NCBI GenBank assembly: GCA_048885925.1
Contig: JBHLLG010000011.1
Span: forward strand, 9,062 to 73,061
DNA from: Candidatus Hermodarchaeota archaeon
GTDB lineage: Archaea; Asgardarchaeota; Lokiarchaeia; Sigyniarchaeales; SOKP01
Reading direction: 5' to 3'
DNA: 64,000 nucleotides
Positions 26,670-53,208 of the stretch are shown here, piece by piece. The notes under the pieces were generated by a model. The model saw nothing but the letters and a program-made list of their open reading frames with translations, was not told where the DNA came from and made no database searches. Position numbers and translations under genes: made by a program. Within the stretch, counting starts at the first letter, position 1; each line of letters begins with the position of its first letter.

Positions 26670-27665
26670 ATGAGGTTTATTTCTGGGTTAAAAAGTCTAT
26701 CAAAAAGAATTCTATTACTGATAATTGTTATACTCTTCATTATTTCTTGGTTTTTATTCACTTTAAGCATTAATGTTATACCAAATAACACTTTTAGATT
26801 TATACTAATATCTTTTATAGGGTTCTTAGCAGGATTCGCCTTTGTACTCTTAATTTTATCGCTTTTTTTTGATATTGATAAAAGAGGAAAGGTTCTTGTA
26901 ATAATTGCACTAATTTCAACAATTCCAGTTATGTTTATTTTTAGTGGGATTATTGAATGGTTTTTTTCTTTCTGCCTAATAGCTAATCTTATTTTAACAG
27001 CTTTTTTTGCATTTAAATTTTGTAGAGACTCTTCTATAAAAGTTGATGATTATTTATATAATAAAAAAAGTTCTAGAATATTTACACGAATAATAGAGTT
27101 CTTACTTTTTGGATTATTAAATTGGTGGTTTATATCAATAACTATAAGATATTTTGCTAGTTTTAGTCAACCAGGAATTCAACGCTTAGCACAAGTCTTC
27201 TTTATTCTCTTTTTAATACATTTGACACTAATAGGTTTTGTCTTAATTAGATTACTCTTTATACAAAAACTAGCGGCTTTTATTTCCTTTTTTAATTTAT
27301 TGACATTTTTCTATGTTATTTATCTTTTAGTTAGTCTCTGGGCTGATTTCATTTTCATAGATAGTATGGGATATGATTTTTTCTCATTTTTTATTGATTT
27401 TCTTTTATTTATTTATATTATAGGTTCCATCTATGACAGGATTGATTATATTAAGAAAATACTTGTAATTTTTGGAGCAGATACAATTGCTTTATTTTTA
27501 ATTTTAATGAAACTTGTTGTTCAAGTTATTAGTATTAAGCAAGAATTCATTACATCGGAAGAATTTATTATAGGTCAGGTACAAATATTATGGATTTTCT
27601 TTGCAATATTTACTCTATTAGTTGGCATATATACTATTTTTAAACATAAAGAGGGTAAGGGCTAA
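26670..27665 (+). CDS. Polytopic membrane protein
   Basis: About 10 hydrophobic segments. Confidence 0.75.
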   Translation: MRFISGLKSLSKRILLLIIVILFIISWFLFTLSINVIPNNTFRFILISFIGFLAGFAFVLLILSLFFDIDKRGKVLVIIALISTIPVMFIFSGIIEWFFSFCLIANLILTAFFAFKFCRDSSIKVDDYLYNKKSSRIFTRIIEFLLFGLLNWWFISITIRYFASFSQPGIQRLAQVFFILFLIHLTLIGFVLIRLLFIQKLAAFISFFNLLTFFYVIYLLVSLWADFIFIDSMGYDFFSFFIDFLLFIYIIGSIYDRIDYIKKILVIFGADTIALFLILMKLVVQVISIKQEFITSEEFIIGQVQILWIFFAIFTLLVGIYTIFKHKEGKG

Positions 27666-27769: not shown

Positions 27770-28012
27770 ATGAGTGAAATTGAATTAAGTCGATCAAAAA
27801 ATAGAAGGATACTATTCATTATATTTTTCTCTGTTGCTGCCTTGATAACTATAATTACCGTAATAACAGTTGTGTTTTTTAGTGCAGAGAATGGAGGAGG
27901 AACTGGATGAGGATGCATAATTTTATTTTCAAAAGTAATGAATTCTGTAAATTATCGAAATTTAACGTGGTTAAACAAACAAATGTTTAGATTTTTAATT
28001 TATTTAATATAA
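27770..28012 (+). CDS. Candidate novel 80-aa single-pass membrane selenoprotein (Sec47, GGGTG-U-GC)
   Basis: ATG 27770, in-frame TGA 27908-27910, TAA 28010-28012, followed immediately by a SECIS. Confidence 0.7.
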
Positions 28013-28013
28013 A

Positions 28014-28082
28014 TACCGAATGGAATGATGCTTGCGAATAAATTTTAGTGGCAGGAGGACCAACCTTGCAATGGTTTCGGTA
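28014..28082 (+). promoter_or_regulatory. Eukaryote-type SECIS element
   Basis: UACCGAA-UGGA-AUGA-UGCUUGCGA-AUAAAUUUUAG-UGGCAGGAG-GA-CCAACC...GGU-UUCGGUA; same architecture as the hdrA SECIS. Confidence 0.8.
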
Positions 28083-28259
28083 ATAAAAGTTGATATCAAG
28101 AAAAAGATTATGAAGTTGGTTAAATATTAAACAATTCACCTCTATTAAAATAATTTGTACTTTTATAAAATTAGAGGTTTATTCTTTTTTTTACTTTTAA
28201 ATCAAGTATAATCAAATTATAAAGTAAATATTTAAAAGATCTATGATTATTCGATAAAT

Positions 28260-28412
28260 ATGTCAGATGCAACCTTAATAGTAAATGAAAGAAAAATCCC
28301 TCTTAAAGATTTTATGCAAGAAATGCTTACAAATATCATTCTTGGTTATATTAAATCAACAAGAGGTATACCGGAAAATATAGAAACAATAAAAATTGAA
28401 ATTAATTTATAA
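28260..28412 (+). CDS. 50-aa protein resembling the MobB C-terminal domain
   Basis: MSDATLIVNERKIPLKDFMQEMLTNIILGYIKSTRGIPENIETIKIEINL*. Confidence 0.65.
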   Translation: MSDATLIVNERKIPLKDFMQEMLTNIILGYIKSTRGIPENIETIKIEINL

Positions 28413-50988: not shown

Positions 50989-51100
50989 AATCTTTATTAA
51001 CAAATATTTTTAACTTTAATAAAAATAACCAATCTTTTAATCACTTCAAATTAATTTGAACTGAAGATATAAATTCATATCAATTATTATTCTATATTTT

Positions 51101-51171
51101 TCTGAAAACCCATACGATGGGTTAGTCTCCTCTCAACTAATATTTTTTTGAGAAGATCATTCCTTTCCAGA
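51101..51171 (-). promoter_or_regulatory. Eukaryote-type SECIS element of hdrA
   Basis: UCUGGAAA-GGA-AUGA-UCUUCUCAA-AAAAAUAUUAG-UUGAGAGGA-GA-CUAACCCAUCGUAUGGGU-UUUCAGA directly after the stop codon. Confidence 0.88.
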
Positions 51172-53208
51172 TTAAGTGTGATAAGGAGCTAATGCTTCAA
51201 TCTTTTTCCAAATAAGTTCAATAGATTCAATATATTCTTCCTTATATTCAAGTTCAGTATTACAAATGCCTTTTATCTCTTCAACAATTTGTTTATCTCT
51301 ATAATATTTAAGATCAATTGCCCTAGCTGGACAGGATGATACACAAACACCACATCCTTTGCATTTCAATTCATCTATTTCTGCAATTTTATCTCCATTA
51401 ACCATTACAGCCTTGTAATTACATAATTTTTCACATCTATGACAACCAATACATAGATTTTCATTTATTTCAGCAATTATTAATTCTTGAACGATTGCAT
51501 CTTTTGATAGTAATGTAGATGTTTTACTCGCTGCAGCTAATGCTGTTGATACCGAGTATGGGATATTTTTTGGGCCAGCAGCACACCCACAAATATAAAT
51601 TCCCATATTATTAGTTTCTTGAGGTTTTAGACATCCATGAACTTCAGATAAAAATCCATTAATATCTTTACTTAAACCTAATGTCTCAATTAATTTTGTT
51701 GTATTCTTAGAAGGGATCATGCCCGTTGATAATACAACAAGATCTGTATTCATTGTTATCATATCATTTGTTAAGGTTGAAGAAGCTGTAATTTTGAGGT
51801 TTTTTGTTATTGAATCTTCTCGTATATCACCAACTTTTCCTCGAATCATCATAATCCCTGCTTCTCTCACTTTTCTATAATATTCTTCATTCCCTTTATC
51901 CCATGTACGCATATCTATATAAAAAATGGCAATATTAATATCAGGATATTCTTGTTTTAACAGTTGAGCATTCTTAAGAGCAACATTACAACATACTCCT
52001 GAACAATAAGGATTTCCTTTTAAAGATCTCGAACCAACACATTGAATCATAGCTACTGTTTCTGGGATTCTTCCATCAGAAATTCTATAGACATGACCCC
52101 CTGTTGGTCCAACTGGACTTAACATGCGCTCTAATTCTATTTGAGTAATTACATCTGGATAAATTCCATATTTATAATCATTATTTTTCATAATTGGATA
52201 TTCATCCCATCCTGTGGCAAGAATTACAGCACCAACTCTTATATCAATAAATTCTGGCACCTGTTCAAAATCAATAGCTTCTGCTTGACACAATTTTTGA
52301 CAATTTTTGCATTCTATGCACACATTCTTATCAATTATCGCAACTTTAGGTACAGCTTGAGGAAATGGTATATAGATTGCACTACGTTCACCAATACCAC
52401 GATTGAATTCATTAGGTACTGTTATAGGACATTTTGTGGTACATAATCCGCATCCTGTACACTTTTTTTCGTTAACATAACGTGGATTTTTTTGTATTCT
52501 AACATTATATTTCCCAGGAATACCACTAAATCCAATAATTTCACTATAAGTCAGAAGGGTTATATTTGGGTGTTTTGAAGCATTTACCATTATAGGGGCT
52601 AAAACTCATATAGCACAATCGTCAGTGGGATAAATTCTATCTAATTGTGCCATTTTTCCACCAATAGTTCCTTCTTTTTCGATTAGAAAAACTCTCACTC
52701 CCTGATTTGCTAAATCTAATGCAGCATTCATCCCAGCAATTCCAGCACCTATTATTAATACTGATTTCTCCACTGAAATTTTTTTATACGGAACAATCTC
52801 TAATTCTCGAGCACGATTGATACCTGCTTGTACTAATCTTATAGCTTTTTCAGTTGTATCTTTTTTATTATTTGAAGATATAAATGAGCAATGTTCACGA
52901 AAATTTACCATTTGAAAATAATATGGATTTAATCCTGCTTCAGCTAAAACTGCTCGATAAGTAGACTCATGAATTTTTGGTGTACAAGCAGCTACAACTA
53001 CTCGGTTTAAATCTAAATCCAAAATATCGTTCTTGATAAGATTTTGCCCTGGATCACTGCAAGTAAAATCATTTGCTCTAGCTATAATGATATTTGGGAG
53101 TGCTTCAACATAATCTCTAATAAGGTCACAATCAATACTGGCTCCTATATTAACTCCTCATCTGCAAATATACACTCCGATTCTTGCAATGGTCTGTTTT
53201 TCAGACAT
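51172..53208 (-). CDS. hdrA: Selenocysteine-containing heterodisulfide reductase subunit A (678 aa, Sec17 and Sec201)
   Basis: One frame from ATG 53208; TGA 53158-53160 in IGVYICR-U-G; TGA 52606-52608 in DDCAI-U-VLAP; SD GGTGA; 3' SECIS. Confidence 0.92.

Follow-up and report, generated by a model that had tools for sequence, protein, structure and literature searches.

A probable family of small, membrane-anchored selenoproteins with Lokiarchaeota-type SECIS elements in Asgard archaea

A 64-kb stretch of an Asgard archaeal genome (contig JBHLLG010000011.1 of assembly GCA_048885925.1; genome of 29% GC, estimated to be 95% complete) was analysed; it is termed the window here, and positions refer to it. 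It contains an 80-codon open reading frame (ORF) with an in-frame UGA. An earlier note on this DNA had proposed that the ORF encodes a previously unannotated membrane selenoprotein with selenocysteine (Sec, U) at codon 47, a Cys two residues later and its own selenocysteine insertion sequence (SECIS) element. When the coordinates were re-read, the ORF, the UGA, the Cys codon 49 and the protein sequence all proved to be as given there (Table 1). The SECIS element starts 2 nt past the TAA, and the UGA lies 117 nt upstream. Taken together, the data presented below make it highly probable that this gene represents an undescribed Asgard family of small membrane-anchored selenoproteins that use a Lokiarchaeota-type SECIS (lokiSECIS) and are proposed to expose a selenol at the cell surface.

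Table 1. Features of the selenoprotein locus and of the hdrA locus used for comparison (window positions)
Feature	Position	Strand	Basis or remarks
Upstream neighbour, 331-aa polytopic membrane protein, no Pfam family	26670..27665	+	Syntenic within the genus, 46-63% identity
Candidate TATA-like box GATATAAAAAAA	27734..27745	+	About 30 nt 5' of the ATG
Coding sequence of the 80-aa putative selenoprotein, including TAA (ATG at 27770, TAA at 28010-28012)	27770..28012	+	ORF reading and syntenic orthologues of the same genus
N-terminal segment, residues 1-13, acidic then basic, predicted cytoplasmic	27770..27808	+	Charge counts
Predicted single transmembrane helix, about residues 14-37	27809..27880	+	Hydropathy and AlphaFold2
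Polar Gly-rich linker SAENGGGTG	27881..27907	+	Gly count and coil in the model
UGA, putative Sec codon 47	27908..27910	+	Invariant alignment column
U-G-C motif (Sec47, Gly48, Cys49)	27908..27916	+	Cys spacing among members
C-terminal tail, residues 50-80, amphipathic	27917..28009	+	Open frame, dN/dS, hydropathy
Lokiarchaeota-type SECIS	28015..28081	+	Covariation, covariance model, pattern match
SECIS closing helix CCGAA/UUCGG	28016-28020/28076-28080	+	
SECIS GG-AAU-GA, AUGA at 28025-28028	28022-28028	+	
SECIS first 9-nt stem arm	28029-28037	+	
SECIS 11-nt apical loop AUAAAUUUUAG	28038-28048	+	A-rich, ends in AG
SECIS second 9-nt stem arm	28049-28057	+	
SECIS GA after the stem	28058-28059	+	Kink-turn core GG-AAU-GA / GA-CC
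SECIS side hairpin	28063-28075	+	
Downstream neighbour, 50-aa ORF, no Pfam family	28260..28412	+	Syntenic within the genus
SECIS of hdrA, comparison element	51098..51174	-	Exact pattern match and covariance model R1
hdrA, Sec at codons 17 and 200	51172-53208	-	Own SECIS directly after the stop

The gene has many relatives in which the UGA is conserved. A six-frame protein search of 60 relatives returned matches with exactly one in-frame TGA from many genomes of the same genus. Twenty-four loci were cut out, followed by 11 more, which gave 35 members from 35 genomes (34 of the genus and one of another family). All 35 have the in-frame TGA, and so do, after a Gly-rich linker, 20 more members, namely 15 of other genera and five further copies or paralogues. 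The search for homologues with a conserved UGA that the note had recommended thus found TGA at the Sec position in all 55 members read, and TAA or TAG at codon 47 in none of them. Given that TGA ends only 14% of the long frames in the host genome, a TGA that is universal at codon 47 is unlike an ordinary stop codon. In an alignment of 24 sequences, no columns other than Met1 and Sec47 are invariant. The members range from 44 to 86 aa in length.

When 160 genomes of the class were searched with a profile, 91 gave matches, comprising 45 of the 52 genomes of the window's genus, 29 of the 42 of a second genus, four of the five of a third genus and all three of another family. TGA was found in each of the best 46 rows of this search (E <= 1.2e-7). 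When the search was extended to 399 genomes of the phylum, matches outside the class, all of them free of stops, occurred in only nine genomes, and the family appears to be restricted to one Lokiarchaeia-like class of Asgard archaea. Several candidates were set aside. Three proteins from other classes that combine a helix with a Cys-rich sequence (L103, L104 and L106) have neither a TGA nor a match to the SECIS covariance model R1 described below. They have a basic N-terminus, one helix, a repeated C-x3-C and a hydrophobic end, and may be either Cys-only relatives or mere compositional look-alikes. A further match outside the class, L105, is an unrelated longer protein. Loci L070 (G120:C134) and L071 (G118:C17) encode a different protein, with a helix and a run of seven Gly, that ends in TAA and lacks both Sec and SECIS; the same genomes also contain true TGA-bearing family members. 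The other TAA-type rows of the class search (L081, L083 and L084) are spurious frames.

The sequence beyond the UGA has the properties of a coding sequence. The frame remains open for at least 20 codons after the UGA in 26 of the 35 members, as compared with two and 14 of the 35 for the other two frames. For 10 pairs of close orthologues, the pooled ratio of nonsynonymous to synonymous substitution rates (dN/dS) amounts to 0.36 upstream and 0.47 downstream of the UGA, with a significant excess of synonymous changes in both parts (Fisher p of 1.6e-11 before and 1.6e-5 after, the pairs being treated as independent). These comparisons, which the note had named as a check, indicate that the tail beyond the UGA is under purifying selection, with six short members, discussed below, as exceptions. 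The tail comprises 24-33 residues after Sec in most members and its stop codon is mostly found a few bases 5' of the SECIS. Judging from its distribution, it would be an accessory and dispensable part of the protein that several lineages have lost. The distance from the UGA to the AUGA of the SECIS is 95-119 nt in 30 of the 35 members and is kept even in short-tail members; the short exceptions measure 47, 47 and 74 nt. This spacing, held despite the loss of the tail, bears on the minimal UGA-to-SECIS distance that has been proposed for lokiSECIS. At locus L042 (G104:C35), the upstream TGA is the Sec codon and the tail is closed by another TGA at the foot of the SECIS, and this terminal TGA is consistent with the minimal-distance idea (PMC4989117).

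Further evidence comes from the SECIS element. The note had listed its parts as GGA-AUGA, a 9-nt stem, an 11-nt loop, a second stem arm, GA, a side hairpin and a closing helix. These were recovered in that order, and within the window the exact pattern is shared with the hdrA element only: of its two matches, one is the gene's own element and the other lies just after hdrA, at 51137-51160 on the minus strand. Only exact matches are meaningful, given that 25 matches were obtained at two mismatches for 17.9 expected. Among the 24 homologous loci, a SECIS was identified by pattern at 23. These 23 family elements were aligned with the hdrA element, and a structure was written by hand and then tested. 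It comprises the closing helix, a two-pair stem below a 3-nt bulge, tandem G.A/A.G pairs, the 9-pair upper stem and the side hairpin. In this structure 92.1% of the cells are paired and both-side (compensatory) changes occur in 15 of the 19 pairs. None of 500 shuffles was as good, slid partner columns were paired to only 33-52%, and RNAalifold independently returned the same helices. For the upper stem taken alone, 90.7% of the cells are paired and eight pairs show compensatory change. The ATGA before the stem is invariant in all 24 elements, as are G48 and A49 after it, and the GG/CC pairs that flank the 3-nt bulge are paired to 95.8%. The apical loop measures 11 nt in 23 of the 24 elements, with A30-A32 invariant and the G at its end nearly so.

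The features published for lokiSECIS are an AUGA, a 9-bp stem, an 11-nt A-rich loop ending in AG, a GA, and a position near the stop codon (PMC4989117). The element agrees with every testable one of these. The SECIS of member L048 has AA in place of the GA after the stem, a replacement also reported for the VhuU SECIS (PMC4989117).

A covariance model, R1, was built from the aligned elements, and the host genome was scanned with it as the note had suggested; of 6564 first-look candidates, 150 were scored. Among these, five strong matches were obtained (E <= 5e-11), corresponding to three hdrA-vhuD operons, the window's hdrA and the 80-aa gene, whose element scored 87.8 bits. The host SelD gene was not matched among the 150 scored candidates, which agrees with the literature, where SelD/SPS is assigned a distinct SECIS type. 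At loci outside the model, R1 matched 28 of 33 TGA-bearing copies (52-87 bits) and none of five look-alike membrane-protein genes without a TGA. A SECIS missing from homologous loci, an outcome that the note had named as adverse, was therefore not the rule either by pattern or by covariance model. The window's hdrA has no vhuD behind it, whereas the three other hdrA copies of the host precede vhuD and share one SECIS located after vhuD; HdrA is described as always in tandem with VhuD by Mariotti et al. (PMC4989117).

A side observation concerns locus L107 (G023:C63, approximately 300-640), which encodes a second type of helix-anchored selenoprotein candidate with a similar N-terminus and helix, a charged linker and the sequence C-K-R-U. 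Its SECIS is R1-positive at 52.7 bits and overlaps the end of the reading frame. Further membrane selenoproteins may be hidden in these genomes, as the C-K-R-U type suggests.

The protein plan outlined in the note, a basic N-terminus, one transmembrane helix and a Gly-rich linker, recurs in the 35 members, the N-terminus being acidic and then basic. The best 19-residue Kyte-Doolittle window of the helix has a mean of 3.0 across members. That of the tail reaches a mean of only 0.81, for which reason the tail is considered to be amphipathic and to form no second membrane span. According to the positive-inside rule, the basic flank of a membrane helix faces the cytoplasm. Since Lys and Arg average 4.7 in the N-terminal segment as compared with 0.09 in the linker after the helix (35 members), the N-terminus is predicted to reside in the cytoplasm, followed by a single membrane span, with Sec outside. 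The linker between helix and Sec is about 8-17 residues long among members, and on average 3.2 of the six residues preceding Sec are Gly. AlphaFold2 models a helix for residues 3-40, a coil for residues 41-48 including Sec, and two low-confidence helices thereafter; pLDDT (predicted local distance difference test) values are highest at residues 11-40 (73-85).

Most members have a Cys close to Sec. Among the 35, it is found at position +2 in 21, at -2 in six, at +3 in one and at +4 in one, and of the 15 members of other genera, 13 have U-x-C and two U-C-stop. Member L048 (G098:C124) contains two in-frame TGA codons and reads G-G-G-G-U-P-C-U; by eye, the second of its Sec residues lines up with the Cys in a close relative, L012 (U-T-S-C), corresponding to a Sec/Cys swap at +3. 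In P0041, a protein from the databases, the position aligned with Sec is occupied by Cys, and the protein is tentatively placed as a homologue (E 2.8e-4). No conserved His, Met or Asp ligands are seen around Sec in the 24-sequence alignment.

To our knowledge, the archaeal selenoprotein families are all soluble redox or Sec-pathway enzymes, and the family reported here is present in public protein sets only in wrong forms. Among 1.84 billion representative proteins, a profile search identified 45 clusters at E <= 0.001. Of the 14 fetched, seven end at the UGA position, six are full length with a Trp there and one is P0041; most of the remaining matches, judged by length, comprise 39-54 aa. The Trp at the Sec position is a TGA taken for a Trp codon by the gene caller, and the entries of these sets (P0003-P0047) are either cut at the UGA or substituted by W. 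Neither Pfam nor NCBIfam contained a family near cut-off for the window protein or for 10 members, and no SelK, SelS, hydrogenase or selenobiotic model was among even the weak matches of these 11 proteins.

A literature search, whose coverage did not extend to subscription journals and supplementary tables, found no description of a membrane or small helix-anchored archaeal selenoprotein. A survey covering over 400 Asgard genomes was confined to homologues of families already known, of which it reports seven, all soluble: HdrA, VhuD/FrhD, VhuU/FrhA, SelD, Prx-like, AhpF-N-like and DsbA-like (PMC11227280). The SECIS-first scan of Mariotti et al. in 2016 reported only HdrA, VhuD, VhuU and Prx-like proteins (PMC4989117). 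A 2026 review gives 11 archaeal selenoprotein families, and among the 119 prokaryotic families that it tabulates, as far as accessible, none is small and helix-anchored like the Asgard family (PMC13188914). A match to an already described family, which would have removed the novelty claimed in the note, was thus found neither in Pfam and NCBIfam nor in the accessible parts of the Asgard selenoproteome papers.

Within the genus, the locus is syntenic, with the order major facilitator superfamily (MFS) protein, 331-aa membrane protein, selenoprotein gene, 50-aa ORF and MFS protein. The note had stated that no adjacent UGA-interrupted gene explains the SECIS; the 331-aa and 50-aa ORFs are indeed uninterrupted and end in TAA, and the flanking MFS genes are located on the other strand. 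In most loci of the genus the 50-aa ORF is 62-84% identical, as compared with about 35-45% for the selenoprotein itself. This synteny was not found at 12 loci of other genera, where the neighbours include an FGGY kinase, a TrmB regulator, PGK (phosphoglycerate kinase), a PIN protein, a methyltransferase and a TIM-barrel protein, and the idea of an operon partner was dropped because the neighbourhood is not conserved between genera. The TATA-like box is a candidate archaeal promoter, from which the mRNA might be nearly leaderless; AT-rich TATA-like runs are also found 30-40 nt upstream in orthologues, a weak sign at 29% GC. A T-run near 28190 separates the SECIS from the next ORF, and a bacterial-type scan called no terminator near it.

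In the host genome, SepSecS was detected above cut-off, SelD contains one in-frame TGA (G000:C42:5914-6783, L088) and several in-frame TGAs are present in the HdrA and VhuD genes. A tRNA-Sec candidate below the gathering score is located at G000:C8:83730-83804 (L090), approximately 80 nt upstream of the SepSecS gene.

The note's interpretation of the gene as a previously unannotated membrane selenoprotein is supported, and the three tests aimed at refuting it (TAA or TAG at codon 47, loss of the SECIS from homologous loci, membership of a described family) left it standing. There is strong confidence that this is a genuine selenoprotein gene of an undescribed family. A number of observations weigh against this reading or against parts of it. 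PSTK was not detected above cut-off in the host genome, ARAGORN identified 13 tRNAs in the whole genome and no tRNA-Sec, also not on L090, and the best tRNA-Sec candidate scored 34.1 bits with RF01852, below the gathering score of 47. In the upper stem of the window copy, the arms differ from those of hdrA and, as the note had put it, still largely pair, with seven of nine standard pairs and G.A and G.G mismatches in the remainder. A single-sequence fold of the SECIS was no better than shuffles (z -0.43). Rfam gave no gathering-level match in the whole window, and in 27900-28200 at E <= 10 only two irrelevant bacterial sRNA hits (E 0.77 and 5.6); according to Mariotti et al., existing SECIS models miss lokiSECIS elements too (PMC4989117). 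Since folding energy and Rfam are uninformative, the RNA case rests on covariation and on the co-occurrence with TGA, two strong lines of evidence. Furthermore, five of the 33 independent copies, from two lineages, had no R1 match; these have a variant AUGA...GA hairpin with compensatory changes by eye and different flanks.

Other adverse points concern the protein. The tail has a dN/dS above 1 in three of the 10 pairs (1.25, 1.25 and 3.62), and six of the 35 members stop 1, 2 or 7 residues beyond Sec: L009, L011, L027 and L028 with at most two residues, L022 and L063 with seven. The endings of the short members are U-G, U-G-G, U-S-G and U-G-C-x5, and U-C in another genus. Because the tail is weakly conserved, the essential part of the protein may be little beyond the anchor and Sec. 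In six of the 35 members, Cys is absent from the four residues on either side of Sec, which weakens an intramolecular selenenylsulfide as a universal mechanism. P0041 is the only candidate for a Cys homologue, and an uncertain one. The AlphaFold2 model is of low confidence (mean pLDDT 66). The genomic context provides no functional hint, since the neighbourhood is not kept between genera.

The following mechanism is proposed. The gene would form its own unit, composed of the TATA-like box, the ORF, the SECIS and the T-run. The kink-turn SECIS would recruit an archaeal SECIS-binding factor and the Sec elongation factor, so that the UGA 117 nt upstream is read as Sec; the analogy with hdrA and vhuD of the host is the basis for inferring Sec insertion at codon 47. 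The short, flexible Gly-rich linker would present the selenol just outside the membrane, where the Sec/Cys pair, usually U-x-C or C-x-U, may form a selenenylsulfide redox couple at the surface. Such a couple is suggested by the location of the selenol on a Gly hinge 8-17 residues past the membrane and by the Cys found on either side of it. Where the Cys is missing, the protein may work as a dimer or offer a single selenolate ligand. Provided that the gene encodes a selenoprotein, an outside-facing selenenylsulfide redox centre is a tentative assignment that falls a little short of an even chance.

The alternative that survives best also assumes a genuine selenoprotein, whose selenolate, with or without the Cys, would be a surface ligand for soft metals or metalloids (for example Cu, Zn, Ni, Cd or Hg) serving their capture, sensing or hand-over. 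The known C-x-C metal sites resemble U-x-C and C-x-U, and the members that have no Cys would still offer a selenolate ligand, possibly as dimers. Moreover, U-x-C is listed for the SO_0444 Cu/Zn efflux proteins, and Sec for putative mercuric transport and metal-binding proteins (PMC13188914), and the genus-level neighbours are MFS transporters and a polytopic membrane protein. However, no metal-related neighbour is conserved across genera, and the lack of conserved His, Met or Asp near Sec and of a match to any metal-binding family also argues against it. If the protein does contain Sec, binding of soft metals is a doubtful but substantial possibility; as an account of the whole locus it is rather unlikely.

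Far less probable is that the UGA is the plain stop codon of a membrane peptide of about 46 aa, followed by an unrelated kink-turn RNA. Gene callers do end the gene at the UGA, most database entries are accordingly only 39-54 aa long, and some members have almost no residues past it. Against this stand the presence of TGA in every member read although it closes only a minor fraction of long frames, the purifying selection and open frame past the UGA, and the Cys kept beside it on either side. The element furthermore has the architecture of those after hdrA and vhuD, and R1 recognizes most copies with a TGA and none of the look-alikes without. An equally improbable explanation is that the ORF is mainly a selenium-sensing leader, in which the event at the UGA, termination or Sec-dependent read-through, would control the mRNA or the downstream 50-aa ORF, the peptide itself being of minor importance. 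The constant UGA-to-SECIS spacing, held even where the tail is gone, and the highly conserved small ORF that follows within the genus would fit this idea. Yet the gene and its SECIS are kept in other genera where the 50-aa neighbour is not, the protein itself retains its helix, Gly linker and Cys partner, in line with the low dN/dS before the UGA, and the T-run, near which the bacterial-type scan called no terminator, separates the SECIS from the next ORF. Least probable of all is that the protein serves as precursor for a selenopeptide, secreted or modified, in the manner of the ribosomally synthesized and post-translationally modified peptides (cf. selenobiotic/selenobacteriocin), its hydrophobic segment being a leader or signal: the small size, the Gly-rich sequence around Sec, the variable C-terminus and a listed bacterial Sec peptide family with an SGUG motif (PMC13188914) are reminiscent of it, but no maturase, radical-SAM or other, and no transporter is conserved as a neighbour in any genus, neither TIGR04081 nor any other NCBIfam model matched 10 members at E <= 1, and the helix length and flanking charges are those of a signal-anchor in which no cleavage-type motif was noticed.

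If the membrane-selenoprotein reading is correct, the family would be the twelfth of archaeal selenoproteins, relative to the 11 of the review mentioned above (PMC13188914). It would also be the first membrane-anchored one in archaea, the first found via the lokiSECIS itself, and the first Asgard-specific selenoprotein family that has no known Cys-family parent. Gene callers systematically truncate or misread such genes, and a lokiSECIS covariance model can recover them.

Among known systems, the closest in gene organization are the HdrA, VhuD, VhuU and Prx-like genes of Lokiarchaeota, which have the same 3' lokiSECIS right after the stop (PMC4989117); the host uses the same arrangement for hdrA and hdrA-vhuD. 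The Asgard family is unrelated to the proteins encoded by those genes, being a single-pass membrane protein of about 80 aa as opposed to soluble redox enzymes. VhuU is the C-terminal piece of the large subunit of [NiFe] hydrogenase, in which Sec is a Ni ligand. With about 50 aa, it is also a tiny archaeal selenoprotein that gene callers easily overlook (PMC11291895). The Asgard family differs from it by its transmembrane helix and its G-rich U-x-C, and there was neither a NiFeSe hydrogenase Pfam match for the window protein and 10 members nor a hydrogenase among the neighbours. Thioredoxin reductase has a C-terminal G-C-U-G redox tail, and C-x-C is a further redox motif. The likeness to thioredoxin reductase is that Sec and a Cys close to it lie on a flexible Gly segment near the C-terminus, where a small selenenylsulfide ring would be possible, whereas the Asgard Sec is attached to no catalytic domain, occurs as U-x-C or C-x-U and not as C-U, and is tethered to the membrane.

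The FeoB-associated Cys-rich membrane protein (PF12669) is similarly tiny, with one helix followed by a Cys/Gly-rich tail. PF12669 proteins are bacterial and have no Sec, and no feoB is found near the Asgard gene; membership was rejected because P0041 alone matched, at E 0.07 and 13.8 bits as compared with a cut-off of 27. The same local motif, U-x-C or UGC, occurs in bacterial selenoproteins such as Trx-like Sec.2, the SO_0444 Cu/Zn efflux proteins, TlpA and DUF1573 (PMC13188914). These are larger proteins with defined domains, and their models match no Asgard member.

In layout, the family is reminiscent of eukaryotic SELENOK and SELENOS (SelK/SelS), which are also small and have an N-proximal transmembrane helix, a Gly-rich segment and a Sec near the C-terminus. 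The Sec of SelK and SelS is one of the last three residues of a cytosolic tail that is long and disordered. For 10 members, no match to the corresponding Pfam models, PF10961 and PF06936, was obtained at E <= 1, and for the window protein none at E <= 0.01; the caution of the note that homology was not demonstrated is upheld. The Asgard linker is much shorter (8-17 residues), Sec is predicted to be outside and not in the cytoplasm, the opposite orientation, and it is among the last three residues in only four of the 35 members (L009, L011, L027 and L028), most others having the 24-33-residue tail. It is very unlikely that the family is a true relative or archaeal forerunner of the SelK/SelS-type membrane selenoproteins. 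The plan of the short Asgard members, which end in U-G, U-G-G, U-S-G or U-C, is nevertheless strikingly similar to that of SelK/SelS, and if such a kinship were true, it would mean that a membrane-tethered selenol was present in Asgard archaea before eukaryogenesis, alongside the eukaryote-like SECIS.

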